From a virus: a DNA stretch of 64,000 nt. This document shows positions 2,918 through 58,826 of the stretch, piece after piece. Where the stretch lies: positions 32,001 through 96,000 of IMG/VR virus record IMGVR_UViG_3300045988_158973. The stretch is one strand, 5' to 3'. The notes under the pieces were generated by a model, which saw nothing but the letters and a program-made list of their open reading frames with translations, searched no databases and was not told where the DNA came from. Made by a program: the position numbers and the translations under genes. The number at the start of each line of letters is the position of its first letter. Position 1 is the first letter of the stretch.

Positions 2918-3727
2918 CTACACTTCTACAGCGTCAAAGTCAATATCAAACTTCTTGTACACAATACGCAACTCCGGAACGCCGTTTATGGGTTTCTTCT
3001 TTTCGTCAACACGAGCGTTAAGCGGCCAACGCTTCAAGATAATATCGTGAGCACGCTGTACACGCTCTTGACGCTTGTATACGTCTTGAAGACCGCCGCC
3101 TTGAGTGGCTTCCTTGTTCATTTTGCTCTGGAGAAGGAAACGCACGAACCGCGCATACACGATACCGAGGTACATGCACTTCAACGAATAGTCGATATCA
3201 CACTTCAACTCCAACTTTTCGTCAAAATCCAGTTCCAGCGTGCGTAAGCCTTTGAACACGATGAGGTGAGGGATGCCGCCGTATTTGAAGCGAGGGCTGA
3301 CGTCGGTGCAGTTCCAGTCAAACGCGCTCTTCCCCATGGTCCCGTACTCGAAGTCGGTTTCCATGACTTCGCGGTTGAACTCTTCGAAGAATTCAGCCAA
3401 CTCTTCAGGGGTTTTCAACGAAAGCCCGCATTTGGCTTCGCCGTCAATCGAATAGAAGAAGTTGGCGATATCGTCATCCATGACCACTACCGGGCGCCCC
3501 TCGTGCAGATAGGTGTTCTTACAGAAATTGACTACATAGCTGTAGCCACGATTCGATGCCGGTAGCACGATAAGGCGTTCACGCTCGTGACCCGCTTCGA
3601 CGTATTTCTCGACGTCTTCTTTCTCGACTACGATGTGATAGTCGACGCCGCCCTTTTTCAGCAGTTTGGTCGTGACGCATTTAGGGCGGTTCTTGGACAC
3701 GACGAAGAATTGACAATTCATACTCAA
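2918..3727 (-). CDS. GT-A-like glycosyltransferase (DxD type), paralog of 21123..21938
   Basis: 269 aa. N-terminal FFVVSKNRP strand, acidic VVVMDDDIANF. Collinear with 21123..21938 (SKNRPKCVTTKLL/TRGRVDRQKTLQRL; VVVMDDDIANF/VFFLDDNVSF; GGGLQDVY/AAGGCSVY). Architecture recalls phage DNA-base (TET/JBP-associated) glycosyltransferases, from memory only. Confidence 0.45.
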   Translation of the reverse strand: MSMNCQFFVVSKNRPKCVTTKLLKKGGVDYHIVVEKEDVEKYVEAGHERERLIVLPASNRGYSYVVNFCKNTYLHEGRPVVVMDDDIANFFYSIDGEAKCGLSLKTPEELAEFFEEFNREVMETDFEYGTMGKSAFDWNCTDVSPRFKYGGIPHLIVFKGLRTLELDFDEKLELKCDIDYSLKCMYLGIVYARFVRFLLQSKMNKEATQGGGLQDVYKRQERVQRAHDIILKRWPLNARVDEKKKPINGVPELRIVYKKFDIDFDAVEV

Positions 3728-4404
3728 AACGGTAAGTCACCCTCGTACCAAATTTCCTCGGGTGGGTTTTGTTCTATAAAACGTTGATATTTGTTCATCG
3801 TAGGCTCTAACGACGGATAAAAGCGCAGCGCCAGTTCCCACTTAACGTCGAACATATCGCCAACATCAACCCGGCGTTTCATCAACAAACTTTCGCTGCC
3901 GTAGCACTGGACTTGAATCTGGCTACAACCGCGGCGCGTGTACGAATACGGAAAGTCGCGATAGTATTCCGCCCCGGACGCCGTATCATACACCGTATCG
4001 TGCACAAACTGGTTGAAGGGGTTGCCTGCACCCAACGGCGCTAACAGGGTGTATCCGGGGTTGCGGCGCATAAACTTACGCAAATAATCGCGAAGCGTTT
4101 GTTCGGCGAAATTAAGCCCATCAGTCCCGAATTTAGCGCGAAGGTACATATAGACGCTTTCGTAGCTATAATCCCTGTAATGGGTCTTGAAATCGCTGCA
4201 ACGGACATCTTCTAACTCCAAGTCCAGACAGTCCGCGCCGATTCCCAGAAAATCGTACAATTTACGCTGTTCAGCGAGCGACGATGGCGCGTTATCAACA
4301 GTAAGCACCCGAACGTCGTATTCGGGTGCTACTAAAACGTGACAAGCGCTCATCAGGAGATCACCCGCGTGCGGCTCGACACAGAGGTACTTTATTTTTC
4401 CCAT
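3724..4404 (-). CDS. PIG-L/LmbE-like deacetylase-fold protein (tentative)
   Basis: 226 aa. LCVEPHAGDLLMSACHVL resembles the AHPDD metal motif and NQFVHDTV the HxDH region of PIG-L/LmbE enzymes. Overlaps both neighbours (4 nt and 13 nt). Confidence 0.3.
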   Translation of the reverse strand: MGKIKYLCVEPHAGDLLMSACHVLVAPEYDVRVLTVDNAPSSLAEQRKLYDFLGIGADCLDLELEDVRCSDFKTHYRDYSYESVYMYLRAKFGTDGLNFAEQTLRDYLRKFMRRNPGYTLLAPLGAGNPFNQFVHDTVYDTASGAEYYRDFPYSYTRRGCSQIQVQCYGSESLLMKRRVDVGDMFDVKWELALRFYPSLEPTMNKYQRFIEQNPPEEIWYEGDLPF

Positions 4405-5351
4405 GGCCGTTTGTAAATCTTCTCAGCGCACGGGCCGTCCTTCGATACGTCTTCAGCCATACGGCGAATTTCAGGCGTAATAGGCGGCAGCGTTTTCTTG
4501 CCCATTTTGTCAGGCAGGAATCCGACGCGGACGCTGACGTGTGTACACCCTTGACACGGCCGGAAACGGCGGTCATTGTTGTACAGCATAACGCGAGCGG
4601 CGTGAAAACGCGGATGGTTCCAAAGGTCCTCGATAGGCATATCGTGGATATTGGCGATAGGGTATTCGCCGCGGAAGTCGTCACAGCACAGACACACCTG
4701 GCCATTCCAACGCACATCCAGTTCACGGAACGGGAAGGTACAGCGCTTGTTGTTGAACGAATCGTCGAGCGGGAACGCTGCACCGCAGTGATTGGCCAGG
4801 CGACGCGTCATCTTGTTGGTATCGTCTTCGGCGATAGGCGGCAGCAGGCAGATACGACGCCCCTGCTTGGGATAGTAGTACGGAACGCCCGGTTCCAGCG
4901 TGACGACGTTGTACTTTTCAACGTCGATCTTCTTGACGAAGTTCCAGTCGCCGTTGGCTGTGTAGCAGTCAACCAGTATGTCGTTCATGCCGGCCTCGAA
5001 CAGGCGGTCGAGGTACTCGGACGTGTCAGCGGCGTGGTTCATGGCGTAGCCGTTGCTGTACATATGAAATACGGCCTTCGGTAAGTGCTTGCGGAACGTA
5101 GCCACGATGTCGATGAACGCGGGGTTAAGCGTCGGCTCGCCGTGCATAGCGAACACGAACTTACAGTTCCACCCCACGCGTGCCACCTCCGAAGCAATAC
5201 GCTCGGCGGTTTCAACGGTCATGAAATTCCACGGTTTAGTCCCTTTTTCGCGCATACCGTGAAGACCACAGAACGAACACCCCAGATTGCACCCCTCGGT
5301 CGGCTCGATCTGCATGGTAAACGGGGGGTCTTGTACGATTTTGTTTTTCAT
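4392..5351 (-). CDS. Radical SAM enzyme with SPASM/twitch-like Cys-rich C-terminal domain
   Basis: 319 aa. CNLGCSFC is a CX3CX2C cluster motif near the N-terminus, and HGEPTLNP is the SAM-binding motif. C-terminal cysteines VCLCCDD...RPCQGCTH. Confidence 0.75.
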   Translation of the reverse strand: MKNKIVQDPPFTMQIEPTEGCNLGCSFCGLHGMREKGTKPWNFMTVETAERIASEVARVGWNCKFVFAMHGEPTLNPAFIDIVATFRKHLPKAVFHMYSNGYAMNHAADTSEYLDRLFEAGMNDILVDCYTANGDWNFVKKIDVEKYNVVTLEPGVPYYYPKQGRRICLLPPIAEDDTNKMTRRLANHCGAAFPLDDSFNNKRCTFPFRELDVRWNGQVCLCCDDFRGEYPIANIHDMPIEDLWNHPRFHAARVMLYNNDRRFRPCQGCTHVSVRVGFLPDKMGKKTLPPITPEIRRMAEDVSKDGPCAEKIYKRPWEK

Positions 5352-6283: not shown

Positions 6284-6295
6284 TGTCGTTAATTT

Positions 6296-6952
6296 TTAAT
6301 CATCATCCCCATCGTGCTCAGTACCCCACGTTCCGTTATTCCTCAACGTGCGGGGAGATGGTAAATCAGCGACACTCACCTTCGCGCCGTAACTGCCACT
6401 TTGGGAGTTTTCTTTACTACGCACGCGATTCGCTCTTTTAGCTTCTTCCGCGGGTGAAGGGGTCGACACCTTCCTCAGTAGGCGAATATCTCCAACCTTG
6501 ACTGGATCGACGAACTTCCCACCTCCTACCTTAGACCTTGAACCGTCAATCTTGACCTCAAACTCATCGCCTTTCAAGTGCTTTATAATAGCACCAACAG
6601 AATAGGAATGGCAACCATACCTATTCTTCACATGAACGATTATCTTATCGCCATGCCCCAAGTCTGAAACGCTAACCCGGTGTCCCGAATTGAAGTCATC
6701 AACCGTATATCCCCACGTTGGTTTCGACGGCAAAACTATCCGTTCGAAATTGGGTTTTTCATAGGGCATTCCAACACGCCCCTTCTTTCGATTTTCAGGC
6801 GTGTTGGCGTAACGACCGCTCTTAGAACGCGCCTTCTCAAGCGCATCATCGGTCAAAGTGTTTCCTTGAAAACAGCCAATGGCCTTTCGTAAGTGATCGT
6901 TGCGGTATTTACTGGCCTCGTGAAAGGTCCTTGTGATTTCGTCTACTTCCAT
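6296..6952 (-). CDS. Hypothetical virion-module protein
   Basis: 218 aa. ALEKARSKSGRYANTPENRKKGRVGMPYEK module shared with 7624..9687. Beta-rich C-terminal segment. Confidence 0.5.
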   Translation of the reverse strand: MEVDEITRTFHEASKYRNDHLRKAIGCFQGNTLTDDALEKARSKSGRYANTPENRKKGRVGMPYEKPNFERIVLPSKPTWGYTVDDFNSGHRVSVSDLGHGDKIIVHVKNRYGCHSYSVGAIIKHLKGDEFEVKIDGSRSKVGGGKFVDPVKVGDIRLLRKVSTPSPAEEAKRANRVRSKENSQSGSYGAKVSVADLPSPRTLRNNGTWGTEHDGDDD

Positions 6953-7161: not shown

Positions 7162-7179
7162 AAACCAATCGGCGTCAGG

Positions 7180-7452: not shown

Positions 7453-7624
7453 CCTCGTTTAGTTCTTTAACCGCCGCAGCCGTAGCGTCGGCGATGTATT
7501 TCAAGACATCACCGAGCGCCGCGGCGTTATTGGCGTTCCATTCCTTAATGAATCGGTTCTCGTATTGAGTAACGGTGGGGAATGGCGACGGAAGGAAGTG
7601 TGTATGTTTGGCGTTGTAGGGCAT
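7406..7624 (-). CDS. Hypothetical small protein
   Basis: 72-aa ORF. Start overlaps the stop of 7624..9687. 47-nt overlap with 7180..7452 makes one of the two starts uncertain. Confidence 0.4.
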   Translation of the reverse strand: MPYNAKHTHFLPSPFPTVTQYENRFIKEWNANNAAALGDVLKYIADATAAAVKELNEDETKKGNLGHTVNED

Positions 7625-9687
7625 TACTCTTCGGTGTTACCGCCGTAGATTTCGAGGAACTTGTCGACGAATTCCTTGTTGGTGCGTTTCATTACCTCGA
7701 TTTGCGCGTCAACCTTCTTGCGGTATTCTTCCGGATCATACTCCCCGCGAAGCGAATCGCGTGCAGCCTGACGCTCGTCAGCGATTTTCTTCAACTCAGG
7801 ATGGTTGAGGAGTTCTTGGCCAACGCCCTTGTCGCGCGACTGCGGATCGGTAAGCGAATTGAGGCTCAAAGCAGCACGCTGGGCCTCCTTGTCGCCGGAT
7901 GCGATCCTTGCTTTCAGAGCGCGGGCAATGCCTTCAGGATTCTTGGCGATCATCTTGGCGTACTCAGCCGGATCAGCCCCTCTGCCGGTTTTCTTGATGA
8001 ATTTATCGGCTGCAGCGTTATCCTTCTCAGGCGAAGACTTTGTAGCTTTGTCGGCCTTGGTGCCCTTTTCAGCACTCTTCACTTCAGCCTTGGCGGCAGC
8101 ATCAGCCTTCTTACCTTGCTTGGTAGCGCTTTCCTCCTCACCGCCGATCAGCGCGTCGAGTTCCTTCTGGCCGTCCTTCGATACCTTCACGCCAGCCATC
8201 TCGAACATATTGGCGATGGTGTCGGCAATTTCGTCGTCCGTAGCGTCGGACTGAGCACCACCAGTGTCAACCGGATTTGCTTTCATGGCTGCAGCCAGCT
8301 CCTTGATGGCCTTGGCGTCGCCTTTCTGCTTTACGAAGGACTTGAAGCCTTCAGTGTCGAAGTCGGTGTCGTTTTCAGCCATGTCGTCGAAACTTTGAAC
8401 GAGGCCCTCGGCGCTGCTGACCTTACCGTCGTCGTTGGCGTCAGCGCGCATCTTGTCGAGCGTGGCTTGGCCTTTCTTCGAAAGTTCGATACCGGCTTCT
8501 TCGAAGATGTTGGCGATCTCGTCAGCGATTTCATCGTCGTTCAAATCGCTCTGAGCCGATTCAGCCTCGTCGGATGCCTTGATGGCGGCGACGAGTTCCT
8601 TGATGGCCTTGGCCTCGCCCTTGTTGTCGATGAGGCTTTCGAGCGCTGCGCCGAAGTCATCGTCTTCACCCGACTCCGAAGTGTAGGCGTCCCACTTGGC
8701 CAGAACGCTTTCACCCGACCCGCGAAGGTTGTCGAGTTCCTTCTTGGCCTCACGCGGTACGCGCGTTCCGGCCTCTTCGAACATATTCTCGATCATGTCG
8801 GCGATCTCGTCGTCAGCCAGATCACTTTGCCCGGCCTCGCTGGGCATCTTACGGATGGCGTCGGCGATTTCCTTCACGGCCTTACCGCCTTTTTCCTTCA
8901 CGAACGATTTGAACGACTTGGCGTCGAAGTCTGCATCGCCCTCAGCCATAGCGTTGAAACTGTCAACGAGCGATGCGGCGTCAGCCTTTCCGCCCTTACC
9001 CTTGGCGTCGGGATCGCCAAACTTAGACGCGGCTCCCTCAACGTCGCCGATCTCCTTCACCGTCACCGACTCGAAATTGTCCACGTCGGCGTAGGGGTAT
9101 TTGTCCACGCGGTAGCCCTCGCTGGTCTTGGTGACTACAAGGTCGAAGCCGTCTTCGTCACCGCCGATCTGCTTGATGAAGGCGTGCGAAGCGTCCTCAA
9201 CTCCGGCGTACTGCTGGAGGTCCTGATCGTCCATCTGACGGAAGCCCATGCCCTCGAACGTCGATGCCGATTTGGCGTCACCGTCAGCCAGCCCGTTACG
9301 CAGCGACGTGTCGCCGTTCTTGTTCTTGGCGCGAACGCTTACACCGCGGCGTTCCAATTCAGCGGTAGCCACCTTGCGCATTTCGGGGTCAGCCTGCGGA
9401 TCGTTGGCAACCTTCGTCAGCGCCTCCTCCGAAGCCTGACGAGCGTGGTTCTGGAGGCTGACATTTCCCTCAGGCATACCACCCTCCTGGCCTTCGCCTT
9501 CAGGGTCTTCCTTGGCGGCTTGGCCGTACTCCTGTCCCACGCGCTGCAGACGACGGTTTTGAGCGTTGTCGGTGTAGACACCGTGACGCGCTTTTTCGAT
9601 CGGCTCTTCCGCGGCCTCCTCGGGGTTGGTGAACCCTTTAAGAATTTGCTGGCGACGCGCTTCGCCGTAGTTGATAACTTCTTTCAT
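7624..9687 (-). CDS. Highly acidic 687-aa protein with three ~95-aa tandem repeats (scaffold-like or DNA-mimic-like; function unknown)
   Basis: The ORF sits directly behind conserved promoter copy i. Repeats share FD..F.SFVK.KG.AKAIKE...A.....QSD..DDEIAD.IANMFEEAG. Asp/Glu-rich throughout. Confidence 0.7.
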   Translation of the reverse strand: MKEVINYGEARRQQILKGFTNPEEAAEEPIEKARHGVYTDNAQNRRLQRVGQEYGQAAKEDPEGEGQEGGMPEGNVSLQNHARQASEEALTKVANDPQADPEMRKVATAELERRGVSVRAKNKNGDTSLRNGLADGDAKSASTFEGMGFRQMDDQDLQQYAGVEDASHAFIKQIGGDEDGFDLVVTKTSEGYRVDKYPYADVDNFESVTVKEIGDVEGAASKFGDPDAKGKGGKADAASLVDSFNAMAEGDADFDAKSFKSFVKEKGGKAVKEIADAIRKMPSEAGQSDLADDEIADMIENMFEEAGTRVPREAKKELDNLRGSGESVLAKWDAYTSESGEDDDFGAALESLIDNKGEAKAIKELVAAIKASDEAESAQSDLNDDEIADEIANIFEEAGIELSKKGQATLDKMRADANDDGKVSSAEGLVQSFDDMAENDTDFDTEGFKSFVKQKGDAKAIKELAAAMKANPVDTGGAQSDATDDEIADTIANMFEMAGVKVSKDGQKELDALIGGEEESATKQGKKADAAAKAEVKSAEKGTKADKATKSSPEKDNAAADKFIKKTGRGADPAEYAKMIAKNPEGIARALKARIASGDKEAQRAALSLNSLTDPQSRDKGVGQELLNHPELKKIADERQAARDSLRGEYDPEEYRKKVDAQIEVMKRTNKEFVDKFLEIYGGNTEE
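8143..8979 (-). repeat. Three in-frame tandem coding repeats (~285 nt each) inside 7624..9687
   Basis: aa ~237-325, ~338-415 and ~427-515 of the 687-aa protein align with each other (SDLADDEIADMIENMFEEAG / SDLNDDEIADEIANIFEEAG / SDATDDEIADTIANMFEMAG). Confidence 0.85.
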
Positions 9688-9714
9688 GGTGTTATAGGTT
9701 TATAAGTTTCATTT

Positions 9715-11376: not shown

Positions 11377-11379
11377 AAC

Positions 11380-19561: not shown

Positions 19562-19849
19562 TCAACAATCCATCACCAAATTACCTTCACACTCCAAGGC
19601 ATACAACCGTTCAGCGTCTGGTTTGGCGTAACAGAATATCAATTTACCGCCGCCAGCGGCTTGTAGTGCCTTACGGTATGCAACCTTGATACGCTGAAAG
19701 GTTTCACTCCTGTAAAAGTCGTAGTCGCTGACGCATATCTCCCACCACCGTTCTTGGCGTGACGCCCAGGAAATTACTCCTGGGCGTTCGGCTTCGATTC
19801 GCTTTACAGCGGCCAACATCAACGAACCGTGTCGGCGATCTGGTTTCAT
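19562..19849 (-). CDS. Hypothetical protein
   Basis: 95-aa ORF. 4-nt overlap with the upstream gene. Confidence 0.45.
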   Translation of the reverse strand: MKPDRRHGSLMLAAVKRIEAERPGVISWASRQERWWEICVSDYDFYRSETFQRIKVAYRKALQAAGGGKLIFCYAKPDAERLYALECEGNLVMDC

Positions 19850-20433
19850 AACGTTTCGTCGAGGTTTTGAGCCAGTTCAGCCAACAGTTTCACGTGTACA
19901 CGCTCGTCAGCAATAATCTTGTTAATCAACTGAACGGCCAACGTAGAAGTCACGGTCGGCGTAGGGTTGCTGGATTGAATGCGCTGGATGAGTTTCTCGT
20001 ACGAAGTGATGGTGTCTTGCTCGGCGCGGAGGTTGATCATCACCGCTTCGATGGGACTTTCGGTCGTAATGTTCACTTTGGCTGCCGAAAACACGGGCTT
20101 CGATACGGCGTGACCCAGATGAGCGATGAAGTCGCCTAAACGATCGTAGTGCTTCATTTCGGTCAGCGCGATTCCCAAGAACGTTTCGCCAATCTGGTCG
20201 AAAAGCATTCGCTGCTGCGTGTACTGGAGAATGGCCGTGAGTTCCGACGTCTCGTTGATGCCGGCGTATGCCTTGTAGAACCACTCGGCCGGAACGCCAT
20301 CGTCGGCTTTGGCCTTGGAAATATCCGGATAATCGACTACATGGTCGGCGAAGCGCATCGACTCTACCATGGCGTCAGCCATCGCTTCGACGTTATCCTG
20401 TTTGGCAGGATTGTGTAAGAGTATCGTTTTCAT
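19846..20433 (-). CDS. Ferritin-like diiron-carboxylate four-helix-bundle protein
   Basis: 195 aa. E / ExxH / E / ExxH pattern: SELTAILQY, LTEMKHYDRL, SYEKLIQ, ADERVHVKLL. Confidence 0.5.
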   Translation of the reverse strand: MKTILLHNPAKQDNVEAMADAMVESMRFADHVVDYPDISKAKADDGVPAEWFYKAYAGINETSELTAILQYTQQRMLFDQIGETFLGIALTEMKHYDRLGDFIAHLGHAVSKPVFSAAKVNITTESPIEAVMINLRAEQDTITSYEKLIQRIQSSNPTPTVTSTLAVQLINKIIADERVHVKLLAELAQNLDETL

Positions 20434-20445: not shown

Positions 20446-21126
20446 TTAATATCCACCGTCCGTGGTGTGACCGTCGTTATCGATACGTTTCCAGTAGCCG
20501 CAGTCCTCGCACTGGTAAAGAACCGTGTCGTCTAAGTCCTTCGTTACCGACATCGGCGAGCCGCAGCGCGGGCACGGTTTCACGTCTTCGTCCCACACGG
20601 CACGCGGTGTTTCCTTTTTGACCGTTGACCCGAAACCACCCGTGTCGCGCTTCGACGGAGTGAGTTCTTCAACCCAACCGGACTCAATTTGGGGCGCAGG
20701 CACGATGACCAGCTGGGCTACGACATCACCGACGGCGAACGCCTTGGAATGTATCGGGCGGGGATTGACACAGAGTTTTCCGACTCCGTGACTATACGTC
20801 TGTAGTTTACCGGCAATCTTCTGCCACAGCGTCGGTGCGTGGAAGACGTTTTTGTAGCGAGCGCGCATCGTACCACGATACCCCGGATCGATCACCCCCG
20901 GCGCGTTACACATCACCAGGTCCTTTTTCGAACAGCGCGAATTGGGGACCAAAAAGCCGCAGTACCCCTTGGGTATTTCAACGGCCACGCCAGTGTCGTA
21001 TTCGATGTAGTCTTCGGTTTCCTCGATCGACACAGCCACGAGGTCCAGTCCGTTGTCTTCGCCGTCGGGGTGAGCGTATGTCGGGAGAACAGCGTTGGGG
21101 TGTACTTTCTTGAATTTTACGTTCAT
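20446..21126 (-). CDS. dut: Trimeric dUTPase with internal insertion and C-terminal zinc ribbon
   Basis: 226 aa. dUTPase motifs NGLDLVA, GVIDPGYRGTMRA, VAQLVIVP, KRDTGGFGST. Extra segment VFHAPTLWQKIAGKLQTYSHGVGKL. C-terminal CPRCGSPM...YQCEDCGYW. Confidence 0.8.
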   Translation of the reverse strand: MNVKFKKVHPNAVLPTYAHPDGEDNGLDLVAVSIEETEDYIEYDTGVAVEIPKGYCGFLVPNSRCSKKDLVMCNAPGVIDPGYRGTMRARYKNVFHAPTLWQKIAGKLQTYSHGVGKLCVNPRPIHSKAFAVGDVVAQLVIVPAPQIESGWVEELTPSKRDTGGFGSTVKKETPRAVWDEDVKPCPRCGSPMSVTKDLDDTVLYQCEDCGYWKRIDNDGHTTDGGY

Positions 21127-21938
21127 TTCTTGTATCCTTTTAAGTGTATTTTGACTTCGATCATTTCACGATCCTTCATTTCGCCACCCCAGTTGGTGCA
21201 CCGCTTGGTACGAAGGGTGATATACTCGGGGAACGCTTCTCTTAAACGTTGTGACTCGGCATTGGAGTTCTCGATAGTTCGATACACGGAGCAACCGCCA
21301 GCGGCGTTGGCTCCTGTCATTTTATCGAACGAATACTGGTACGAAACCACGTTATCCAATCCCGCACGGCGTAAGCCACACGCCACCGCAAAATCTTCCT
21401 TGATGGGCCACTCGCTGAATCTCACAGGCTGGCTCAGATACTGCTCGATGTTCAGCCCCCAAATGGAGAAGAACCGCCCGTTGATCTGTACGTCGTGTTC
21501 CTTATCGCGGTTGAAAGGACGGTACGAAAGCGCCGCCACGGCATAGGTGTCCAGCTGTTCAGCCACCCAGTCGAACATCATCGAGTAGATATATTCTTGA
21601 GCCTCGACGGTGAAATTGTCGTTGTTTATGACTACAGGGGTCTTGGCATCGTCTAAACGTAGCGAGAAAGACACGTTATCGTCTAAAAAGAAGACTCCGC
21701 CAAATCCCCGATTTTGGGCCTCTACAACAATGTAGTCGCGTATATCCCCCACGCCGCGACACGCCGTGCTGTATTCCTCGATGCCGCCAACCTTACCGCC
21801 CCAGTTACGGCGATGAACCGCCAATTCGCCGGGGTGACAGAATACGGTCACGCGCCGACGCGCTTCAGGAGTGAGACGTTGAAGGGTTTTCTGACGGTCA
21901 ACACGACCACGAGTGAATAGTGCTATCAGAGTTTTCAT
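21123..21938 (-). CDS. GT-A-like glycosyltransferase, paralog of 2918..3727
   Basis: 271 aa. VFFLDDNVSF acidic motif. Collinear similarity to 2918..3727 (see that entry). Confidence 0.45.
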   Translation of the reverse strand: MKTLIALFTRGRVDRQKTLQRLTPEARRRVTVFCHPGELAVHRRNWGGKVGGIEEYSTACRGVGDIRDYIVVEAQNRGFGGVFFLDDNVSFSLRLDDAKTPVVINNDNFTVEAQEYIYSMMFDWVAEQLDTYAVAALSYRPFNRDKEHDVQINGRFFSIWGLNIEQYLSQPVRFSEWPIKEDFAVACGLRRAGLDNVVSYQYSFDKMTGANAAGGCSVYRTIENSNAESQRLREAFPEYITLRTKRCTNWGGEMKDREMIEVKIHLKGYKK

Positions 21939-31873: not shown

Positions 31874-32803
31874 TTATTTCTTATCGTTAAATTGTTTAAT
31901 TGCTTCTACGACCTTGGCGAACTCGTCGGCGGTAAAGTAAACACGTTTACAAATCGTGTCACCCGTGCCGTAAATCAGTTCTACATAGCGTTCGTCGTTG
32001 ACCGACGGTGCGCTAACCGTAGCGAAGGCGCCGTTGGGGTGTTCTTCGTCCGGAGTTTCTTTTACTACTACCGGATAGTGAGGATTCAATTCACAGAACA
32101 CTCCAGCGGATTCCCCAGTGAGGTGTACGACGCGGACGGAATTCGGGAACTGCTGTACGACCTGATACTCACGCTGGTTGATATTTGAATACACGCGACT
32201 GCCTACAGCCACCTCGCCGAGCGGTTGCTCGTGGTCGGTGATGAGCGTAACACCGATGGCTACTGCTGATTTGCCGGCTGACGGGAAATTGGTTCTGAAG
32301 GTGTCGAGAGCCTCATCGAGAGCTGGCTTTTCAACGGCCGCAATCGTTACACGGCCTAAATACTTACCGTTTTTGTCGGCGAACTGGAACGTGTAGAGGT
32401 TGAGTTCTTCATCCGTTTCCGGTTCTTCTGGGGTCTTGGCCCACTCCAGCCACGCTTTATTCCAAGACGAGCGGATGAACAGCATATCACCCGAGCCGTC
32501 ACCCCACCAGTCGTTGCAGTGCGATAACTGAGCGCCGTATCGATTCCGATTAGCCGGGCACAGTTTAGCGTAAATCGAGCGGAACATCGTAGCCACGACA
32601 CGACCAGCAAAGTGCTTACCCTCGCGGGCGTCGTTCGTGCAGTAGCCCCAAGCACCAACGGTTTCAATCTTGCCGTGCCCGTCGAGGAACTCGGAGTCGG
32701 TATCTCCCCAACCTCCATAGAGGAAGGTGTCTTTCAGGAGCTGGCGCTCTTCAGCGGTCAATACGCTTACGATAGTGCGGATGTTTTCGATAGAAGGTTT
32801 CAT
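31874..32803 (-). CDS. Hypothetical protein
   Basis: Trimmed to ATG 32803 (MKPSIENI), because 32804..32857 is the promoter iii leader. Confidence 0.55.
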   Translation of the reverse strand: MKPSIENIRTIVSVLTAEERQLLKDTFLYGGWGDTDSEFLDGHGKIETVGAWGYCTNDAREGKHFAGRVVATMFRSIYAKLCPANRNRYGAQLSHCNDWWGDGSGDMLFIRSSWNKAWLEWAKTPEEPETDEELNLYTFQFADKNGKYLGRVTIAAVEKPALDEALDTFRTNFPSAGKSAVAIGVTLITDHEQPLGEVAVGSRVYSNINQREYQVVQQFPNSVRVVHLTGESAGVFCELNPHYPVVVKETPDEEHPNGAFATVSAPSVNDERYVELIYGTGDTICKRVYFTADEFAKVVEAIKQFNDKK

Positions 32804-47939: not shown

Positions 47940-47940
47940 A

Positions 47941-51508: not shown

Positions 51509-51546
51509 AATACTTTGATTTTGTTAAGGTGTTAATATAAACTTTG

Positions 51547-52445: not shown

Positions 52446-52446
52446 G

Positions 52447-53097
52447 TTAAATTATGTTATTTTGTAAAGCGTTTACGGCTTCGCGCGGTACATAAAGCGT
52501 GTGTACAGTATCAAATACATCAGCCACTTCACACGCATTTTGTAACGTTGTCACTGCTTTCCGGAAATTGTCGTTACAGTACGGAAGCAGATTCAACGGC
52601 CATGAACGGTTCCCCATGGAGAGTTCGCGGTTCAGGAAATACAACAGCGCCATCCAGTCTGCCACCTTCACCACCGCATGAGTGATATCGTAATACTCAC
52701 CCGTCTTGGAGAGAGTTTGAAGTACCTCTGAATCCGCGCCAAAGTCATCCGCCATCTGGTGTTCGACGAACTTATCGAGTGCGTATCGTATTTCCATGCC
52801 ATTGTAGGCGTTGTATTTCACCTCGTGAGTGATGTCACGACGCAAAATGGCTTCATCGAAGTCGTGCATCAGCGCCACTTTCAACGTTCGGTACTTGAAA
52901 GCCAATACGGCGTTAGTTTCAGTCCCCGTAGGCCAAAAGTAGTCCAGTAGGCTCATTGTGAAGACCGACACCTTGAACGAGTGCTGCGAAACACTCTCCT
53001 GCTGATGGCGGTCGTATTCCAGCCACTGCTTGATGTTGTCCAGCCGCGCCAAATAATCGCGATTGAACAGTTTTGTTAAATCCCCTTTGATTCCCAT
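52447..53097 (-). CDS. HD-domain phosphohydrolase (YfbR-like 5'-deoxynucleotidase type)
   Basis: 216 aa. His in SQHSFKVSVF, HD in ALMHDFDEAILRRDITHEVKY, distal Asp in VVKVADWM. Confidence 0.65.
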   Translation of the reverse strand: MGIKGDLTKLFNRDYLARLDNIKQWLEYDRHQQESVSQHSFKVSVFTMSLLDYFWPTGTETNAVLAFKYRTLKVALMHDFDEAILRRDITHEVKYNAYNGMEIRYALDKFVEHQMADDFGADSEVLQTLSKTGEYYDITHAVVKVADWMALLYFLNRELSMGNRSWPLNLLPYCNDNFRKAVTTLQNACEVADVFDTVHTLYVPREAVNALQNNII

Positions 53098-53112
53098 AAC
53101 GATATTGTTTAA

Positions 53113-55158
53113 CTATTGCAGTATTTCTAACCTTGTAGATGGTGAAGACTGCACGGTTTTCTTTCCAGCGAAGTAATTCACACGCCCCGTAACAGCCACA
53201 ACGCGGTTCAGCAGCGTGGCTTCAGTTTCTGACTGGTGAAGCCAAAAATCGGACCACAACGTGACCTGTATGATAAGGTCGTTCACCTCCAACTGAAGAA
53301 CGCCATATGCGTCACCTCGCTTGGTTTGGCGCTCAAATACGTTGTTCACTCGCCCCACAATACACACTTCGTCGCCTTCGTTCTTGCGTTCGAATTCCGG
53401 CGCGGTAACATACAGTCGAACCATTCGTTTTCCGAGCCCATATTCGTTCATCATACGCTCGTAGTCTACTTCTCCGTACCCGGTTAATTCACGCTGTTTG
53501 AAGACCCACCAAGCGTTGGTATGGGCATCTGGCGTATCGTACTCTTCGGGGAGTGGTTCGCCGCGGCGGTCGAGATACTGTTTAACGATATCCAGCCGTT
53601 GGCGTGGATTGCGTATACCCTCTACGAGGTCAAACGCTCCGGCGGTTATGAGCCGCAGCACCACGGTACGATTAATACCCTTTGGTGCAGATGTTATGAA
53701 GTCTTCAAACGAAAACACTTCGCCGTGTTCTTGCTTCATAGCCTTCAAAAACGAAAGAGCACGTTCGCCAATTCCCTTCACCTTCCCCAAGGAGAAGAAT
53801 ATACGGTTCGTCGTTGGGTCACACGTGAAGGTTTCATCTGAGAAGTTGATGTCTGGTGGACGAACTTCAATGCCAGCTCCAGTCTTCTTCATTTCCACCA
53901 ACCGATACGGAATATCTGATTCTTTTGAAGCGTACTGGAGTGACGTTGTCCAAAACTCCAACGGATAATTGACCTTGAACCACTGCGACCAATACGACAT
54001 CATGGTATAGGCTACGGCATGACTCTTGTTAAATCCATAGCCTGAAAAGGCCAGCAGTTTGGACCAAACCTCATCGGCTTTTTCTTCCGTTCGCTCTTTT
54101 ATTCCCGATTCGCGCAACAAGGCTGAATACCCTTCACGGAACTTACCATGGAACGATTCGATAAGGTCCATATTTTTCTTCTTGATAGCCGTACGAAGTA
54201 TATCGGACTCTACAGGACTTAAACCTCCAACGACCACGGCTTTCATGATTTGCTCTTGGTAGGTATACAACGAGTATGTATCACGCGTGATTTCCTCCAT
54301 GCCGGGGTCGAATTTAGGCTTCTTGCGTCCGTTCTTGATTTCAACAAACGTTTCGTGTGCCTTAACATCCATAGGACCTGGACGGAACAGCGCCGTCATA
54401 GCGATCAGGTCGTCAAGCGTATGCGGCTTGGCTTCGCGGCAGTAGTTCATAAGTCCCATAGCGCCAAACTGGAATACATCCTCGCACCATCCACGCTGGA
54501 AATACCGGAACACCTCTTCGTCGCCGAACGGAATAGTGTTGACGTCAATATGCTGTTTACGGTTCTTGGCTATCAACTTTATGATCGACGAGAATTTATC
54601 CAACTGGTTAAGCCCCAGAATATCCTCTTTCAAGAAGCCTGACTTGTCGATGTACTTACCTTCCCACTCCGACACCAACGTGTCTCCCATGCGCTTTATA
54701 GGCATCCAGCTGTAAAGGTCCATAGGGTTTCCGTTTTCATCTTCCTTTGGTACGATGATAACAGCCGACGGGTGAACCGAGCCTGTCTTACATTGCGTAA
54801 GAGCGTATTTCGTCATATGTACCAACTCCGGATGATCTTGAACGAAACGGAACAATTCCCGCGACGTAGCGGCGTAATTGAACAGGTCGCCCCATGTGTA
54901 TTCGATTTGGTCGTCGATGTCCTTGGTGAGTTTATTCATCACCGCAAACGGTACGCCCATGACCTTGCCGAAGTCCTTCAGACATGTCTTCAGTTTCATG
55001 CGCGTATAGGTACCAACCGAGCACACATGATTAGCGCCATAACGTCGCGACATGTATTCTTTCACCGTATCGCGAAACGCTACAGGGAAGTCGCAATCCA
55101 CGTCCGGCATGCTGTCCTGACGGGCAATTTCAACCTTTTCTATCTTTAGAATTTTCAT
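53113..55158 (-). CDS. dnaE: DNA polymerase III alpha (DnaE-type), C-terminal fragment starting just before the catalytic aspartates
   Basis: Trimmed to ATG 55158, which overlaps the HEG stop as ATGA. SMPDVDCDFPVAFRDTVKEYMSRRYGANHVCSVGTYTRMKLKTCLKDFGKVMG aligns with E. coli [26 protein letters not shown]...ITFGTM..K..IRDVGRVLG. Confidence 0.85.
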   Translation of the reverse strand: MKILKIEKVEIARQDSMPDVDCDFPVAFRDTVKEYMSRRYGANHVCSVGTYTRMKLKTCLKDFGKVMGVPFAVMNKLTKDIDDQIEYTWGDLFNYAATSRELFRFVQDHPELVHMTKYALTQCKTGSVHPSAVIIVPKEDENGNPMDLYSWMPIKRMGDTLVSEWEGKYIDKSGFLKEDILGLNQLDKFSSIIKLIAKNRKQHIDVNTIPFGDEEVFRYFQRGWCEDVFQFGAMGLMNYCREAKPHTLDDLIAMTALFRPGPMDVKAHETFVEIKNGRKKPKFDPGMEEITRDTYSLYTYQEQIMKAVVVGGLSPVESDILRTAIKKKNMDLIESFHGKFREGYSALLRESGIKERTEEKADEVWSKLLAFSGYGFNKSHAVAYTMMSYWSQWFKVNYPLEFWTTSLQYASKESDIPYRLVEMKKTGAGIEVRPPDINFSDETFTCDPTTNRIFFSLGKVKGIGERALSFLKAMKQEHGEVFSFEDFITSAPKGINRTVVLRLITAGAFDLVEGIRNPRQRLDIVKQYLDRRGEPLPEEYDTPDAHTNAWWVFKQRELTGYGEVDYERMMNEYGLGKRMVRLYVTAPEFERKNEGDEVCIVGRVNNVFERQTKRGDAYGVLQLEVNDLIIQVTLWSDFWLHQSETEATLLNRVVAVTGRVNYFAGKKTVQSSPSTRLEILQ

Positions 55159-55907
55159 TTCTTTCTTGGTTTCATGCCATACCAAAATCCATCAGGGAGC
55201 GGAGCGCCCTTTGGGATAGTAGTGTTTATTTCGCCGTTAGTTATCCTAACTTTGCCTTGCATGGGATTCGTGTACCCGTGCTCGTATCTATCGCGTATTT
55301 TCTTACCAAAATCCCTGCGCCGTTCCTCGGGCCAACGGTTATTCCAGTTAGGGTTATTTTCACCATTATAACGACCTCTCATTTTAGCCGACAAGTTCGC
55401 TTTTTGTTCGGCTGTCCATCGGTTGCCGTAGTTTGGATTCTTTTCGCCTACATATCTGCCTTTCAAGGACTTCGAAATTCTTTCCTTGTAGTCAGTATTG
55501 TCCAAAGTAATTTGGCGTTTTTGGTGAATTCGCTTCATTAACTCTGGACGATTCTTGAACGTCTTTTTAAGCGACCTTGAAACCTTAACAGCGACCTCTG
55601 GAATCAACATCGGCGAACCGCTTCCAAACTGGTTAGCCGTACCCGGTAGGATGTTATATCCTATACCCTTTTCAGTAGAACGTAGCTTCTTGATGTAAAG
55701 CATCTCCCAAGCGTCGAGTTGTAGCTGGGTATCACACACGCGGAGCGTTTCACGTTTGAAATTCTCAGGGCCGTAATACCTAACAGCATTCGTCAAGGAT
55801 ACGCCGCTACCCAAATACCCATCAAACTCGTCTGTTTTGCAGTGGTGTTGGCCGATGTAAATCTTACCGTTGACGAGGTTCGTAGTTTTGTAAATTATAC
55901 CTTGCAT
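55155..55907 (-). CDS. GIY-YIG homing endonuclease with NUMOD3-like repeats
   Basis: 250 aa. GIIYKTTNLVNGKIYIGQ (GIY...YIG). Repeats GRYVGEKNPNYGNRW / GRYNGENNPNWNNRW. AT-rich relative to the flanks. Overlaps both DnaE fragments. Confidence 0.85.
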   Translation of the reverse strand: MQGIIYKTTNLVNGKIYIGQHHCKTDEFDGYLGSGVSLTNAVRYYGPENFKRETLRVCDTQLQLDAWEMLYIKKLRSTEKGIGYNILPGTANQFGSGSPMLIPEVAVKVSRSLKKTFKNRPELMKRIHQKRQITLDNTDYKERISKSLKGRYVGEKNPNYGNRWTAEQKANLSAKMRGRYNGENNPNWNNRWPEERRRDFGKKIRDRYEHGYTNPMQGKVRITNGEINTTIPKGAPLPDGFWYGMKPRKK

Positions 55908-57598
55908 AAAGTCCGTAATTTATCAATATCTATGTCCAGGTCTATATTTGATAAATCACAGTCTATGTCTATTTCTTTACCGTTTCGAAGAGGAATCTTG
56001 ACATTTTCAGGTAATCTAAATTTACCATATCCCTCTATTTCCAAATCCCAATACTTAGGAACGGTAACGCGCGTTTCATTCAAGAAACGTTCGAACATCA
56101 GGTGGTATTTCAGCGGGTCCACGTCCGTGATGTACAGGCAATACGCAATCAACGAACCGCACACTGAACCACGGCCCGATCCAGTCATGATACCTTGTTC
56201 GCGACACCAGTTCATGATATCCCAAAGGATCATGAAATAATCACACAACCCGTTAGGGACGATAATGGCACATTCCTTCTCCAACTCGTTTAGATAGCGA
56301 TCAAGGTCATCGACCTTACCTACCAGCCGTTCCTGAACGCCCGCTTCCAGTTTCTCAAAGAAAGCGTCTTCAACCGTAGTTTTTACAAACTCATATTTCG
56401 GAAGATGACGTATGCCGGTGGGTATCTTAAAGTCAATACTGTCCGTCAACGTCGTGGAATTGGTCATTCCATCAATTATCTTTTCGTAAAGGGGCGCGGC
56501 TCCGTCCATCCACTCTTCGTAGGCTAAAATCGTCTCTTTTGAGTTTTTGAAGTATTGCGTCGCACTTTCAGCATTTACAACCCCTGCCACCTTATTCAAC
56601 AACGACTTCAGAGGCGCTTCTTCAGCGTCCAAGTAGTACGAATCGTTGATGACCAACGGCAGCGCGTCACGGTATAGCTTCATCTTGCGGCACCGTAAGA
56701 CGTAGGTGTCCAAGTTTTCGAGGTGGTCACGGAAAAGACTTTCCGACGCATATTCGACGGTATCGATCTGGTAATATACTCGATCGAACGCTGCATGGTA
56801 TGCCGTCAGCAGGCGCTTACACCGATCTAAATCACCCTTGAAATAATTCAGTTCCGAATCCGACGGTATGACACACGCCAGTCCGTCGCCCAGTTTGTAA
56901 AGTTCTTCCGCAGGGATGAATCCTTGATAATCGACGTTGATGGCCTTATTTACCAACAACAAGTTACGCCATCCGGCGGCGTTCATGACGTATAGTTTCA
57001 GCGAGAACGTTTCCTGAATTTCCACCGCCGGGTCGTAGTTACACGCCACCGTAATGGTCTCGCCGATGATAGGTTTAACACCTTTAGCCAAGCACGCAGT
57101 CTGGAAAGCCAGCGTTCCGGCCAGCGTGTTGCGGTCACATATACCCAACGCCGTCATACGGTTGAACCGAGCCTTCGTAGCCCACTCATCGCAATTCGAA
57201 GAGCCGTTCAAGAACTCGTACTCGCTGTGGACACCGAGGTGTACAAACGGCACCAGTTCTTCAGCCGTACTCGTACCAAGGTACTTGAAGTCGCGGAATT
57301 CAGGGCGAAATACCACGGTTTTATCCAACCGCAGGTGATCCTTTTTGATGTTCGAGTAGTAGAACTTTCCACCAAACTCGAATAGGATATATTTTACAAC
57401 GCCGTCATACAAGGCGTCAAATTCGTCGGCCGTTACCGCAAACGAGAAGCGTTCGTCGATTATCTTTCCCTTATCGTCGGGGTGTAGGTACAAAAAGTCC
57501 CCCACACCTTCAATTGAAATTACGTTCAGTTCGTCGTCGCGCTTTTCTTCAATAGCCAAATAATTATCATCAGCCCAACGGCGTAGTGCGTCAGTCAT
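55895..57598 (-). CDS. dnaE: DNA polymerase III alpha (DnaE-type), N-terminal fragment (PHP domain plus first part of palm)
   Basis: 567 aa. PHP FVHLGVHSEYEFLNGSS. GSGRGSVCGSLIAYCLYITDVDPLKYHLMFERFLNETRV aligns with E. coli [39 protein letters not shown]. Followed by a 55-aa non-homologous tail. Confidence 0.85.
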   Translation of the reverse strand: MTDALRRWADDNYLAIEEKRDDELNVISIEGVGDFLYLHPDDKGKIIDERFSFAVTADEFDALYDGVVKYILFEFGGKFYYSNIKKDHLRLDKTVVFRPEFRDFKYLGTSTAEELVPFVHLGVHSEYEFLNGSSNCDEWATKARFNRMTALGICDRNTLAGTLAFQTACLAKGVKPIIGETITVACNYDPAVEIQETFSLKLYVMNAAGWRNLLLVNKAINVDYQGFIPAEELYKLGDGLACVIPSDSELNYFKGDLDRCKRLLTAYHAAFDRVYYQIDTVEYASESLFRDHLENLDTYVLRCRKMKLYRDALPLVINDSYYLDAEEAPLKSLLNKVAGVVNAESATQYFKNSKETILAYEEWMDGAAPLYEKIIDGMTNSTTLTDSIDFKIPTGIRHLPKYEFVKTTVEDAFFEKLEAGVQERLVGKVDDLDRYLNELEKECAIIVPNGLCDYFMILWDIMNWCREQGIMTGSGRGSVCGSLIAYCLYITDVDPLKYHLMFERFLNETRVTVPKYWDLEIEGYGKFRLPENVKIPLRNGKEIDIDCDLSNIDLDIDIDKLRTLCKV

Positions 57599-57599
57599 T

Positions 57600-58826
57600 T
57601 TACAACAATTTACTGGGTTCTGCGTTAGATAACCTTGCTTCGAAGAAGTTTCTCGCCAGCATCATGTAGTCCCACTTTTCGTCGGCTTCACAGCTGGTGT
57701 TGATAAGGCCTAACAGCCCGTGACATTCGTTCAACAGCTGATCGCGGTCTTCGCCGAGACACGCATGGCGGTTACGCTTGTAAAAGACGTACAGTTTCAG
57801 CAACTCGTACACACCCCAAAAGTAAGTCGACTTCTCCAGCACATACTGCTCAAACCCCGCTTCGTCGTCGGGGTCAGTACCGTTAGTGTTACGATGAAGC
57901 AGCCGGGAGATCAGTTCGTCCATGAAGGCCGTTATTTCACGCAAACGGTTTACCGCCACTTCAGATTCGAACTTGAAGTCCATCATATAGGCAACGCCGC
58001 CTTCGCGAACGTTGTAAATACTGCTCCGCGCTTCGTCAGCCATGAATAATTTCGCCATTTGTTCAGCGGTTTTATTCCACTCGTAGATGTGTAACGACTG
58101 CGAGTTATGGGTCTGAACACCCAACTCAATTCCTAAACAAAGGGACATTATCTCCGTCAGGAACGAGAACTGAAAGATGTTCGTAGGAAGGCCCCAGTGG
58201 AGGTCATTCGAGCGATTCTGAATAGTGGTAACGAGTTTGCCGTTGCGTATCTTGAGCATCACCATGTCGTTACAGGGCAAGTCTTTCGACTTCACGCCCA
58301 AATCGAAGCGGGGGTTCCAAATCGACATCACCACCTGTCGCGTTTCGGGATCAGCCGACAACAGCCGCACAGCCTCGCTCACCTGGTCAAAGCCGGGGTC
58401 CATCGACTCGCTCTCAGAAGCTATTCCCCAATGACGCAAACGCCATCCATAAGGGGCGTGAAACGTTTCGCCATTGTCAGAAAAATCAGCCATCTTGCTG
58501 TTGAAGATCGTCAAAAATTCAACATCCTTGCGGCCTGTAGCTATCCACATGGCTTCAGCCAGCAGGAAGAATATATTGATGTTGCGGCCATACCCTCCCA
58601 CACACCGACGGTACGGGTTGTTGACGATGGTCTTAACGTCTAAAAGTTCACGAACGTTACCACCGCGCGAAGGGTTCAGCGGGAGATTATTCATCATCAA
58701 TTTGTTGATGTAGGGATATACCTCCGCAAACGACCCCCATGTATCAGTAAACGCGACGCGTCTTTCGAAGTTAAAATCAAAGCGACTCAAGCCCACAGCG
58801 TCTTGGGAAATAGACTCTTGTTTCAT
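57600..58826 (-). CDS. Thymidylate synthase-fold enzyme, dUMP-specific (TS or dUMP hydroxymethylase)
   Basis: Trimmed to ATG 58826. HAPYGWRLRHWG, catalytic Cys in KDLPCND, NRSNDLHWGLPTNIFQF aligns with E. coli QRSCDVFLGLPFNIASY (Asn177 equivalent retained). Confidence 0.75.
   Translation of the reverse strand: MKQESISQDAVGLSRFDFNFERRVAFTDTWGSFAEVYPYINKLMMNNLPLNPSRGGNVRELLDVKTIVNNPYRRCVGGYGRNINIFFLLAEAMWIATGRKDVEFLTIFNSKMADFSDNGETFHAPYGWRLRHWGIASESESMDPGFDQVSEAVRLLSADPETRQVVMSIWNPRFDLGVKSKDLPCNDMVMLKIRNGKLVTTIQNRSNDLHWGLPTNIFQFSFLTEIMSLCLGIELGVQTHNSQSLHIYEWNKTAEQMAKLFMADEARSSIYNVREGGVAYMMDFKFESEVAVNRLREITAFMDELISRLLHRNTNGTDPDDEAGFEQYVLEKSTYFWGVYELLKLYVFYKRNRHACLGEDRDQLLNECHGLLGLINTSCEADEKWDYMMLARNFFEARLSNAEPSKLL

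Follow-up and report, generated by a model that had tools for sequence, protein, structure and literature searches.

The 64,000-nucleotide stretch analysed here (the window; positions 32,001 to 96,000 of the IMG/VR record IMGVR_UViG_3300045988_158973) carries a dispersed set of phage genes predicted to remodel thymidine in the phage's own DNA. These encode a dUMP hydroxymethylase of the thymidylate-synthase fold, a DNA-glycosylase-like protein of the HMUDK_hel family, two TET-associated glycosyltransferases (TAGT1 and TAGT2), a dUTPase and an HD-domain nucleotidase, together with a ferritin-like protein and a head-module cassette in which TAGT1 follows a radical SAM enzyme and a PIG-L-like protein, p226 (Table 1). 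Almost all genes in the window lie on the minus strand, and its G+C content is ~0.52. An initial annotation had listed these open reading frames (ORFs) and proposed a thymidine hypermodification; all of them are present on the minus strand with correct coordinates, and their family assignments were mostly right, with refinements for the 336-amino-acid (aa) HMUDK_hel protein, the glycosyltransferase pair and the PIG-L-like label. We read the set as a kinase-independent, glycosyltransferase-based modification of 5-hydroxymethyl-2'-deoxyuridine (5-hmdU) with HMUDK_hel as partner, a predicted chemistry to which we give slightly better than even odds (about 0.55).

Table 1. Genes of the predicted thymidine-modification set and other features of the window
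Feature	Coordinates	Strand	Remarks
dUMP hydroxymethylase (thymidylate-synthase fold)	57600..58826 (ORF 57600-58838, ATG at 58826)	-	Predicted maker of 5-hydroxymethyl-dUMP before replication
HMUDK_hel, DNA-glycosylase-like helical protein, 336 aa	15408..16418	-	Core gene immediately upstream of portal gene
TAGT2, TET-associated (GT-A-like) glycosyltransferase	21123..21938	-	PF20691 6.7e-13; phrog_842 7.1e-28
TAGT1, second, very divergent TAGT	2918..3727 (gene callers' start, 3721)	-	PF20691 3.8e-13; phrog_842 2.4e-18
dUTPase with C-terminal zinc ribbon	20446..21126	-	Pfam dUTPase 2.2e-8; phrog_135 7.5e-31
HD-domain YfbR-like 5'-deoxynucleotidase	52447..53097	-	Pfam YfbR-like 7e-12
PIG-L/LmbE-like p226, degenerate catalytic motifs	3724..4404	-	Conserved partner directly before cassette glycosyltransferase
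Radical SAM / SPASM enzyme	4392..5351	-	Pfam Radical_SAM 1.7e-16, SPASM 2.6e-12
Ferritin-like di-iron protein	19846..20433	-	Pfam Ferritin 1.7e-8, Rubrerythrin 3.6e-5; two ExxH motifs
Terminase large subunit with intein, 905 aa	21958-24675	-	Hint and LAGLIDADG homing endonuclease
DnaE-type DNA polymerase III alpha, split	53113-57598 (ORFs 55895-57598 and 53113-55185)	-	
Free-standing GIY-YIG homing endonuclease gene	55155-55907		Overlaps both DnaE halves
P-loop protein, 585 aa	1126-2883	-	Walker A at residue 220; phrog_1250 (function unknown)
Gene with 687-aa product	7624-9687	-	Rich in Ala, Glu, Asp, Lys, Gly
ORF of 707 aa	7582-9705	+	Shadow of the gene at 7624-9687

Several features support the thymidylate-synthase-fold protein as a predicted enzyme of the dUMP hydroxymethylase type and not an ordinary thymidylate synthase. 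It matches Pfam Thymidylat_synt (9.4e-23) and phrog_5131 (4.4e-69), its best cultured-phage matches are the dUMP hydroxymethylases of SPO1 (gp29), SP8 and SP-10 (44-48% identity), and it widely misses the NCBIfam thymidylate-synthase cut-off (73 versus 327 bits). We aligned it with E. coli ThyA, whose sequence was verified against PDB entries, and with the enzymes of SPO1, SP10, LuckyBarnes, PhiJL001 and PaMx11. Pro145, Cys146, Arg166, Ser167, Asp169 and Asn177 were invariant, the catalytic Cys of the window enzyme lying in a DLPC motif and its Asn in LPTN, which bears out the original description of a ThyA-fold enzyme with catalytic Cys acting on dUMP; Asn177 governs the choice of dUMP over dCMP (PMC13326640). 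The E. coli Leu143 position is occupied by Asp in all six phage proteins, including the window enzyme, and the Trp80/Trp83 region of ThyA is replaced in the phage enzymes, as in proven hydroxymethylases. An acidic residue at 143 admits water, leading to hydroxymethylation, while Asp169 to Asn is the mark of 5-hydroxy-dCMP synthase (PMC13326640), a mark not carried by the window enzyme, which retains Asp169. As first reported, dihydrofolate reductase (DHFR) was matched in no Pfam scan of the window ORFs.

Two further genes would complete the nucleotide-pool logic, and the matches in Table 1 uphold their proposed identities as dUTPase and HD 5'-nucleotidase-like protein. The dUTPase, which also matches NCBIfam dut at 4.8e-20 (under that model's cut-off), would supply dUMP and possibly acts as a dTTPase. 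Its residues ~176-217 form a zinc ribbon that resembles the Lar restriction-alleviation family below threshold, and other strains encode a 174-aa dUTPase lacking this ribbon. The HD-domain protein would deplete the dTMP pool. An HD gene is found next to the hydroxymethylase gene in PaMx11, where it is annotated as an HD-domain protein, and also in PhiJL001, with weak, sub-threshold YfbR-like/HD_3 matches. In our own judgement, the DNA of this phage is very probably 5-hmdU-based.

The 336-aa protein contains RDYKFTNVYRELDRNSQW and had been placed in the aGPT-Pplase family. In a Pfam scan no model of that name matched, and the protein hit HMUDK_hel (PF18723; 1.8e-51, 175.6 bits versus a cut-off of 25) across profile positions 4-279 of 281. 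Since PF18723 is also the sole model matched by PaMx11 gp50 and by a Nachito protein annotated 'aGPT-pyrophosphorylase clade 1', it corresponds to the former aGPT-Pplase clade 1; PaMx11 gp46, a proven amino-acid:DNA transferase, matches PF18724, which is clade 2, at 1.6e-27. The first assignment was therefore to the right family under an old name, but to clade 1, whereas the proven transferase belongs to clade 2. HMUDK_hel is homologous to PaMx11 gp50 and to the C-terminal half of SP10 gp186, an experimentally used 5-hmdU DNA kinase in which an N-terminal P-loop kinase is fused to a C-terminal HMUDK_hel domain, a fusion that accounts for the Pfam name. In PaMx11 and Nachito, kinase and HMUDK_hel are encoded by separate close genes, directly adjacent in PaMx11.

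Across 43 distinct HMUDK_hel sequences, Cys307, Glu308, Lys311, Asp215, Tyr150 and Gly-Pro-Gly at 239-241 are invariant, and the window protein carries all of those tested (the Cys-Glu pair, Gly-Pro-Gly, Asp215 and Lys311). Using hhalign against a single clade-2 sequence, VEMWLCE of HMUDK_hel was aligned onto VETILCK of PaMx11 gp46, the Cys of which is the catalytic Cys247 (PMC11472151); this comparison between clades is statistically weak (probability 1.9%) and was used for the local ExxxC motif only. An AlphaFold2 (AF2) model of HMUDK_hel (predicted local distance difference test, pLDDT, 89.6) had the gp46 structure, 8z2m, as its top PDB fold match, which is weak (E 1.0; template-modelling (TM) score 0.34-0.38), with archaeal AGOG-type DNA glycosylases further down the list and likewise weak (TM up to 0.40). 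Sequence searches against the PDB gave no matches, and a homologue search recovered little beyond the phage family itself (54-62% identity in its distant relatives), with no informative domain fusions or names. From its residues and fold, clade 1 looks like an enzyme. The best-supported reading is that HMUDK_hel would be an obligatory partner in a predicted kinase-less glycosylation route.

Both glycosyltransferases exceed the PF20691 gathering cut-off of 27.5 (50.3 and 49.5 bits). The suggestion of two paralogous GT-A-like enzymes holds to that extent, but with 14% identity between them the paralogy is at family level only. An Asp-Asp pair is invariant in the TAGT alignment, and TAGT1 has a DDD motif. 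TAGT2 found no sequence matches in the PDB, while homologues of TAGT1 came almost entirely from the same phage family, without informative domain fusions or names. We predict that TAGT2 is a DNA 5-hmdU glycosyltransferase; a preprint reports that GT-A-like glycosyltransferases of viruses often lie close to thymidylate-synthase homologues (10.1101/2023.12.21.572611). Pfam scans of the window matched neither a TET/JBP dioxygenase nor a methyltransferase beside the TAGTs, which are accompanied instead by the hydroxymethylase and HMUDK_hel. A TET/JBP route to 5-hydroxymethyluracil (5-hmU) was considered and rejected because such a domain appeared in no Pfam scan of the window ORFs.

Strain comparisons link the two TAGT genes despite their separation. 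Strains either have or lack TAGT2, the difference being a clean indel immediately behind the terminase gene. All 16 contigs with TAGT2 also have TAGT1 and lack a GT-B-like gene, and all three contigs without TAGT2 lack TAGT1 and encode a 495-aa GT-B-looking protein in its place, as seen in close variant strains. This co-variation ties the cassette to TAGT2's pathway, though the three exceptions form one clade. Strains swap glycosyltransferases, which we tentatively take as a sign of an arms race against modification-dependent nucleases of the host.

The same families are found together in many other phages. Using a TAGT2-centred alignment we scanned IMG/VR and obtained 48 loci with a TAGT, which included HMUDK_hel in 41 cases, hydroxymethylase in 43, all three in 40 and an HD gene in 21. 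TAGT lay ≤600 bp from HMUDK_hel in 39 of the 48, and a kinase plus a clade-2 transferase (AADT) accompanied it in one. Clustered at 70% TAGT identity, these loci fall into 11 groups, 8 of which contain the module. This TAGT subfamily is thus nearly always located in a HMUDK_hel-TAGT-hydroxymethylase-(HD nucleotidase) operon without a kinase. Among cultured phages, LuckyBarnes encodes HMUDK_hel (gp38), two annotated glycosyltransferases matched by TAGT2 in tblastn (gp39 and gp40) and hydroxymethylase (gp41), and PhiJL001 has the same set as gp19, gp22, gp24 and gp25; neither a kinase nor a clade-2 transferase turned up in the parts searched, 50 of 50.8 kb for LuckyBarnes and 50 of 63.6 kb for PhiJL001. 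Co-location of HMUDK_hel, TAGT, hydroxymethylase and HD genes has been noted in pelagiphages, without chemistry (PMC9599517). The window has all four module families, with no kinase or AADT detected.

Two variants of these gene neighbourhoods were observed. At the locus L287 (IMGVR_UViG_3300020576_001247), a kinase, a clade-2 transferase, two HMUDK_hel proteins, a TAGT, a hydroxymethylase and an HD protein occur together, and this may be a hybrid or intermediate system. In some relatives, a 341-348-aa gene directly follows HMUDK_hel (L205, 11114-12160) or TAGT (L246, 11944-12969): loci L246-248 encode HMUDK_hel, directly a TAGT and then a 341-aa protein homologous to that of L205, which matches FkbM-family methyltransferases at 1.2e-9. 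The FkbM-type neighbour hints at methylated sugars in those relatives.

Many IMG/VR counterparts of the window are contigs of 100-101.6 kb, indicating that it represents 64 kb of a ~100-kb phage genome, and the ~36 kb beyond it was walked via overlapping loci (L005, L012, L087, L103/L110 and L007) until the circle closed. The initial annotation saw no P-loop 5-hmdU DNA kinase in the window. This was confirmed, with no Pfam match (PF18748/PF18747) among its ORFs, and a kinase was not detected in the rest of the genome either: the reconstructed ~100 kb contained no Walker-A ORF of kinase size, and the phmmer queries, three known 5-hmdU DNA kinases (5-HMUDKs) that detect each other as a control, gave no matches. 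For the clade-2 transferase, PF18724 matched none of the window ORFs and phmmer with gp46 matched nothing in the ~100-kb genome. Walker-A proteins in the genome comprised the 585-aa head-module protein, UvrD, a RecA-like protein, DnaB and a DEAD-box helicase, and the pattern was also fitted, probably by chance, by two large structural-module ORFs beyond the window (514 and 611 aa). We considered the 585-aa protein as a hidden 5-HMUDK and rejected it: it matched only phrog_1250 and, weakly, AAA_30, had no similarity to the three kinases and no matches to PDB sequences, and its gene is conserved in the head module of every relative.

A P-loop kinase and a glycosylase-like gene were the only genes common to all four founding phages of thymidine hypermodification (PMC5889632). 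With neither of that family's two defining features, the kinase and the clade-2 transferase, detected in the ~100-kb genome, the present phage falls outside the kinase-plus-AADT pathway family. The earlier claim that its gene combination matches no characterised route stands in this respect, but the combination is not unique, as it recurs in LuckyBarnes, PhiJL001 and uncultured phages.

The head-module cassette lies in a variable island with the gene order MuF-like, radical SAM, p226, TAGT1 and 585-aa protein. Its translational overlap had been described correctly, with genes abutting or overlapping by 1-13 nt. The radical SAM enzyme has both domains above threshold, in keeping with its first identification, a CX3CX2C motif (CNLGCSFC) and best PDB matches to BtrN (1e-8, SPASM part) and anSME; no NCBIfam equivalog or specific subfamily fits it. 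Its gene is present in some members of the phage family and absent in others. It is linked to the proposed pathway by position only, and would be an accessory, possibly sugar-tailoring, enzyme.

The PIG-L-like label for p226 is correct by descent, but the window protein itself had no Pfam match even at E ≤ 1 and its motifs are degraded. Distant homologues match PIG-L below threshold (1.1e-3 and 2.1e-2; 19.9 bits versus a cut-off of 28.2) and carry QPHSDD and GHPFH, where the window p226 has EPHAGD and GNPFN, so that the Asp predicted to be catalytic is gone, as is each His of HxxH. This points to a PIG-L descendant that has probably lost its activity. The AF2 model (pLDDT 66.7) gave only generic Rossmann-like Foldseek matches in the PDB (TM ≤ 0.38), a profile search against PDB sequences was negative, and homologues were almost confined to the same phage family, again with no informative fusions or names. 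Strains whose neighbouring genes are 95-98% identical share only 73-90% in p226, and the variant P0005 lacks the motif His, a divergence that suggests relaxed or diversifying selection.

Pairing of a PIG-L-like protein with a glycosyltransferase nevertheless persists across strains and relatives, making the pair the conserved unit. Beyond the GT-B replacement in close variants, more distant relatives encode a p226 homologue with a ~485-aa protein that resembles GT4 below threshold, some of them having the radical SAM enzyme and others lacking it. In one further relative, a p226 with intact motifs has a TAGT1-like enzyme as its partner. In PIG-A/PIG-L, MshA/MshB and BshA/BshB, N-acetylglucosamine (GlcNAc) is transferred and then deacetylated, and the phage unit, by analogy, recalls this logic. 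The identity of the di-iron protein near the dUTPase gene was also correct (Table 1), but its place in the pathway is conjectural; many but not all of the distant relatives keep it (41-48% identity), as a rule with the same genes around it, and the dUTPase is mostly undetected there.

Based on these genes, we infer the following route, in which all of the chemistry, including which sugar is added, is predicted. Thymidine would be replaced wholly or partly by 5-hmdU. Before replication, the dUTPase would generate dUMP and the ThyA-fold enzyme would convert it to 5-hmdUMP, water attacking the exocyclic methylene in place of hydride transfer, while the HD nucleotidase would remove dTMP. Incorporation of 5-hmdU into DNA would then fall to kinases of the host and to the phage's DnaE polymerase. 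After replication, the TAGTs would move a sugar from a nucleotide-sugar to the 5-hydroxymethyl oxygen without prior phosphorylation, one probably adding the first sugar and the other extending it or differing in linkage or sequence context. HMUDK_hel, fused or adjacent to the kinase in kinase systems and adjacent to TAGT in kinase-less ones, is a conserved partner that would recognise 5-hmdU and flip the base out for the group-transfer enzyme, and its invariant Cys-Glu pair may also perform covalent C6 chemistry. The radical SAM and PIG-L-like proteins would be accessory; relatives with intact PIG-L motifs suggest GlcNAc transfer followed by de-N-acetylation, with the deacetylase motifs degraded in the window strain. 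The glycosylated thymidine derivative anticipated in the initial annotation is thus the best-supported predicted outcome, based on the TAGT-family glycosyltransferases, the conserved HMUDK_hel-TAGT-hydroxymethylase operon and the joint gain and loss of the TAGTs.

A number of observations weigh against this route. The window genes do not form one operon, lying at ~15.4, 21.1, 52.4 and 57.6 kb and, with the cassette, dispersed over 56 kb, and the cassette sits in a head-morphogenesis module, where a protein target is possible. Co-variation of the TAGTs involves essentially one clade and maybe one or two events, the acceptor and donor specificities of TAGTs are not readable from sequence, and the T6 TAGT adds a second sugar, not the first (PMC13390438). 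The kinase search covered Walker-A motifs and three query sequences, with Pfam applied to the window ORFs. The Cys alignment to clade 2 combines the weak profile and fold matches given above, and clade 1 was dispensable in published in-vitro reconstitutions of M6/ViI-type pathways (PMC8989533). Our literature search found no experimental report of glycosylated 5-hmU in phages, nor of the chemistry of the kinase-less module.

The same evidence bears on the other explanations. That there is no DNA modification, with an ordinary thymidylate synthase among unrelated accessory genes, would fit the dispersal of the window genes and the frequent annotation of homologues as 'thymidylate synthase'; given the change of Leu143 to Asp and the lost Trp80/Trp83 region, as in proven hydroxymethylases, a score far under the NCBIfam ThyA cut-offs, no DHFR gene found in the window and a four-gene operon conserved elsewhere, we regard it as highly improbable. 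Quite unlikely, in our view, is a SPO1-like state in which 5-hmdU stays unmodified, the glycosyltransferases, PIG-L-like and radical SAM proteins act on virion proteins or host glycans, and HMUDK_hel is a non-catalytic DNA binder that, for example, shields 5-hmdU from host glycosylases. The relationship of the major capsid protein and hydroxymethylase to Herelleviridae (SPO1, SP10), the position of the cassette between the MuF-like head protein and other head-module genes, and the SPASM type of the radical SAM enzyme, commonly peptide-maturing, are all consistent with such a state. It is disfavoured by the operonic association of TAGT with HMUDK_hel and hydroxymethylase in 39-40 of 48 loci, by the co-variation of the head-module TAGT1 with TAGT2 beside the terminase gene, and by the literature found, which describes TAGT-family enzymes only as DNA base glycosyltransferases (PMC13390438; Pfam name).

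HMUDK_hel could also be the key transferase, with Cys307 attacking 5-hmdU (or a form of it that is glycosylated or has been activated by the host) at C6 to give an exocyclic methylene, after which a non-sugar nucleophile would be installed or the base reduced to thymine; the glycosyltransferases would act on the appended group or on leftover 5-hmdU, and the product would be mixed or non-O-glycosidic. The invariance of the Cys-Glu pair, Lys311 and Asp215, the alignment of this motif with the catalytic Cys247/Glu243 region of clade 2, the clade-2 structure as top fold match, and the core status of HMUDK_hel in a phage family with variable glycosyltransferases all favour this proposal. Because a kinase to install the leaving group was not detected, clade 1 was unneeded for product in the M6 and ViI reconstitutions and its resemblance to clade 2, in sequence as in fold, has weak statistics, we think it rather unlikely. 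We also tentatively entertain the possibility that clade-1 HMUDK_hel is more than a passive helical domain, namely an active Cys-dependent DNA-base enzyme that, with TAGT or GT4-like enzymes (and a PIG-L deacetylase in relatives), would convert 5-hmdU without a kinase into a glycosylated thymidine not described before, perhaps one bearing an amino sugar. Our preferred reading remains a glycosyltransferase-based modification of 5-hmdU in which HMUDK_hel is a partner.

The phage belongs to a lineage that is common in public metagenome assemblies. One window protein was recorded in 34 blocks of a public assembly collection, and homologues of the HMUDK_hel protein make up 668 clusters at 90% identity (E ≤ 1e-5); an ENA contig (ERZ1034142 NODE_127) is 99.99% identical to the window across a 9.5-kb overlap. 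Its major capsid protein is nearest to those of Bacteroides phages DAC16-23 and SJC03 (49%), followed by Herelleviridae such as SP-10 (39%), and its DnaE polymerase is nearest to homologues from Chryseobacterium, Cellulophaga and Bacteroides phages. Megablast of 15-22 kb against GenBank phages gave zero matches, suggesting no close cultured relative.

Other features of the window include mobile elements in two genes. The terminase large subunit is interrupted by an intein, and other strains carry an intein-less 563-aa allele matching the PHROG terminase large subunit at 1e-60; the DnaE gene is split in two by the homing endonuclease gene. The 707-aa plus-strand ORF is the shadow of a true minus-strand gene, the antisense frame of which is stop-free because of the gene's codon bias. 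After the gene for the MuF-like head protein and the cassette come two conserved genes, one for the 585-aa P-loop protein and one beyond the window (L005, 8389-10770) for a ~793-aa protein that by eye has kinase-like and ADP-ribosyltransferase-like domains, with no significant Pfam match and no PHROG match. Both products may be ejected head effectors.

In every thymidine hypermodification worked out so far, a dedicated DNA kinase phosphorylates 5-hmdU and a clade-2 transferase then acts. The window genome, and a widespread operon in LuckyBarnes, PhiJL001, pelagiphages and uncultured phages, keep the hydroxymethylase and the clade-1 paralogue, with glycosyltransferases replacing kinase and transferase. 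If glycosylated 5-hmdU is indeed made, it would rank, within the searchable literature, as the first counterpart of base J from a phage, would give a role to the clade-1 protein, which is conserved yet functionless in every reconstitution, and would provide additional DNA-acting glycosyltransferases for 5-hmU mapping tools. Given how often this phage family turns up in public assemblies, a bulky modification of thymidine might skew the sequencing of these viromes by the polymerase chain reaction or nanopores, and it would shape which host restriction systems act on the phage.

Among the closest known systems is the route of M6, ViI, PaMx11, ΦW-14, SP10 and SH-Ab 15599, which uses a hydroxymethylase, a 5-HMUDK kinase, a clade-2 aGPT-Pplase/AADT and tailoring enzymes. 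Shared with it are the hydroxymethylase with dUTPase and HD nucleotidase support, the clade-1 HMUDK_hel and, by prediction, modification of 5-hmdU in DNA that has already been replicated. M6 likewise has a radical SAM gene, although the window enzyme is of SPASM type and any relation to M6 gp53 is hypothetical. In place of the kinase and clade-2 transferase, both undetected, the window phage has glycosyltransferases. LuckyBarnes, PhiJL001 and HTVC023P-type pelagiphages have the same four families, LuckyBarnes likewise with two TAGT genes. Unlike in those phages, the window genes are spread over packaging, replication and head modules, an extra cassette adds a PIG-L-like protein, a second glycosyltransferase and a radical SAM enzyme, and the lineage is one of ~100-kb genomes with a capsid closest to that of the Bacteroides phages named above.

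The predicted product class, O-glycosylated 5-hydroxymethyluracil in DNA, is that of base J (β-D-glucosyl-hydroxymethyluracil) in kinetoplastids. There, JBP dioxygenases produce the 5-hmU within the DNA itself and glucosylation follows, whereas Pfam scans of the window revealed no TET/JBP domain. Sugar-decorated thymidines are also known from SP-15, YerA41 and Carin-5 (PMC12686479), phages with glycosyltransferase and deacetylase-like genes in their genomes, where the sugars are on a phosphorylated dihydroxypentyl linker in SP-15 and similar linkers are inferred for YerA41 and Carin-5 (PMC12686479); these phages have a PolA fused to uracil-DNA glycosylase and the window phage a DnaE. The T-even phages offer the same logic, with a hydroxymethylase before replication and then direct sugar transfer by the T4 α/β-glucosyltransferases or the T2/T6 β-glucosyl-hydroxymethylcytosine α-glucosyltransferase of the TAGT family, and the same order is predicted here. 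In both, two glycosyltransferases can give mixed or disaccharide products and are swapped between strains. The base is predicted to be uracil-derived in the window phage (Asn177) and is cytosine-derived in T-even phages (Asp), which also lack the glycosylase-like HMUDK_hel partner conserved here. By analogy, then, the phage pathway would work like T-even glucosylation moved onto a thymidine-hypermodification chassis.

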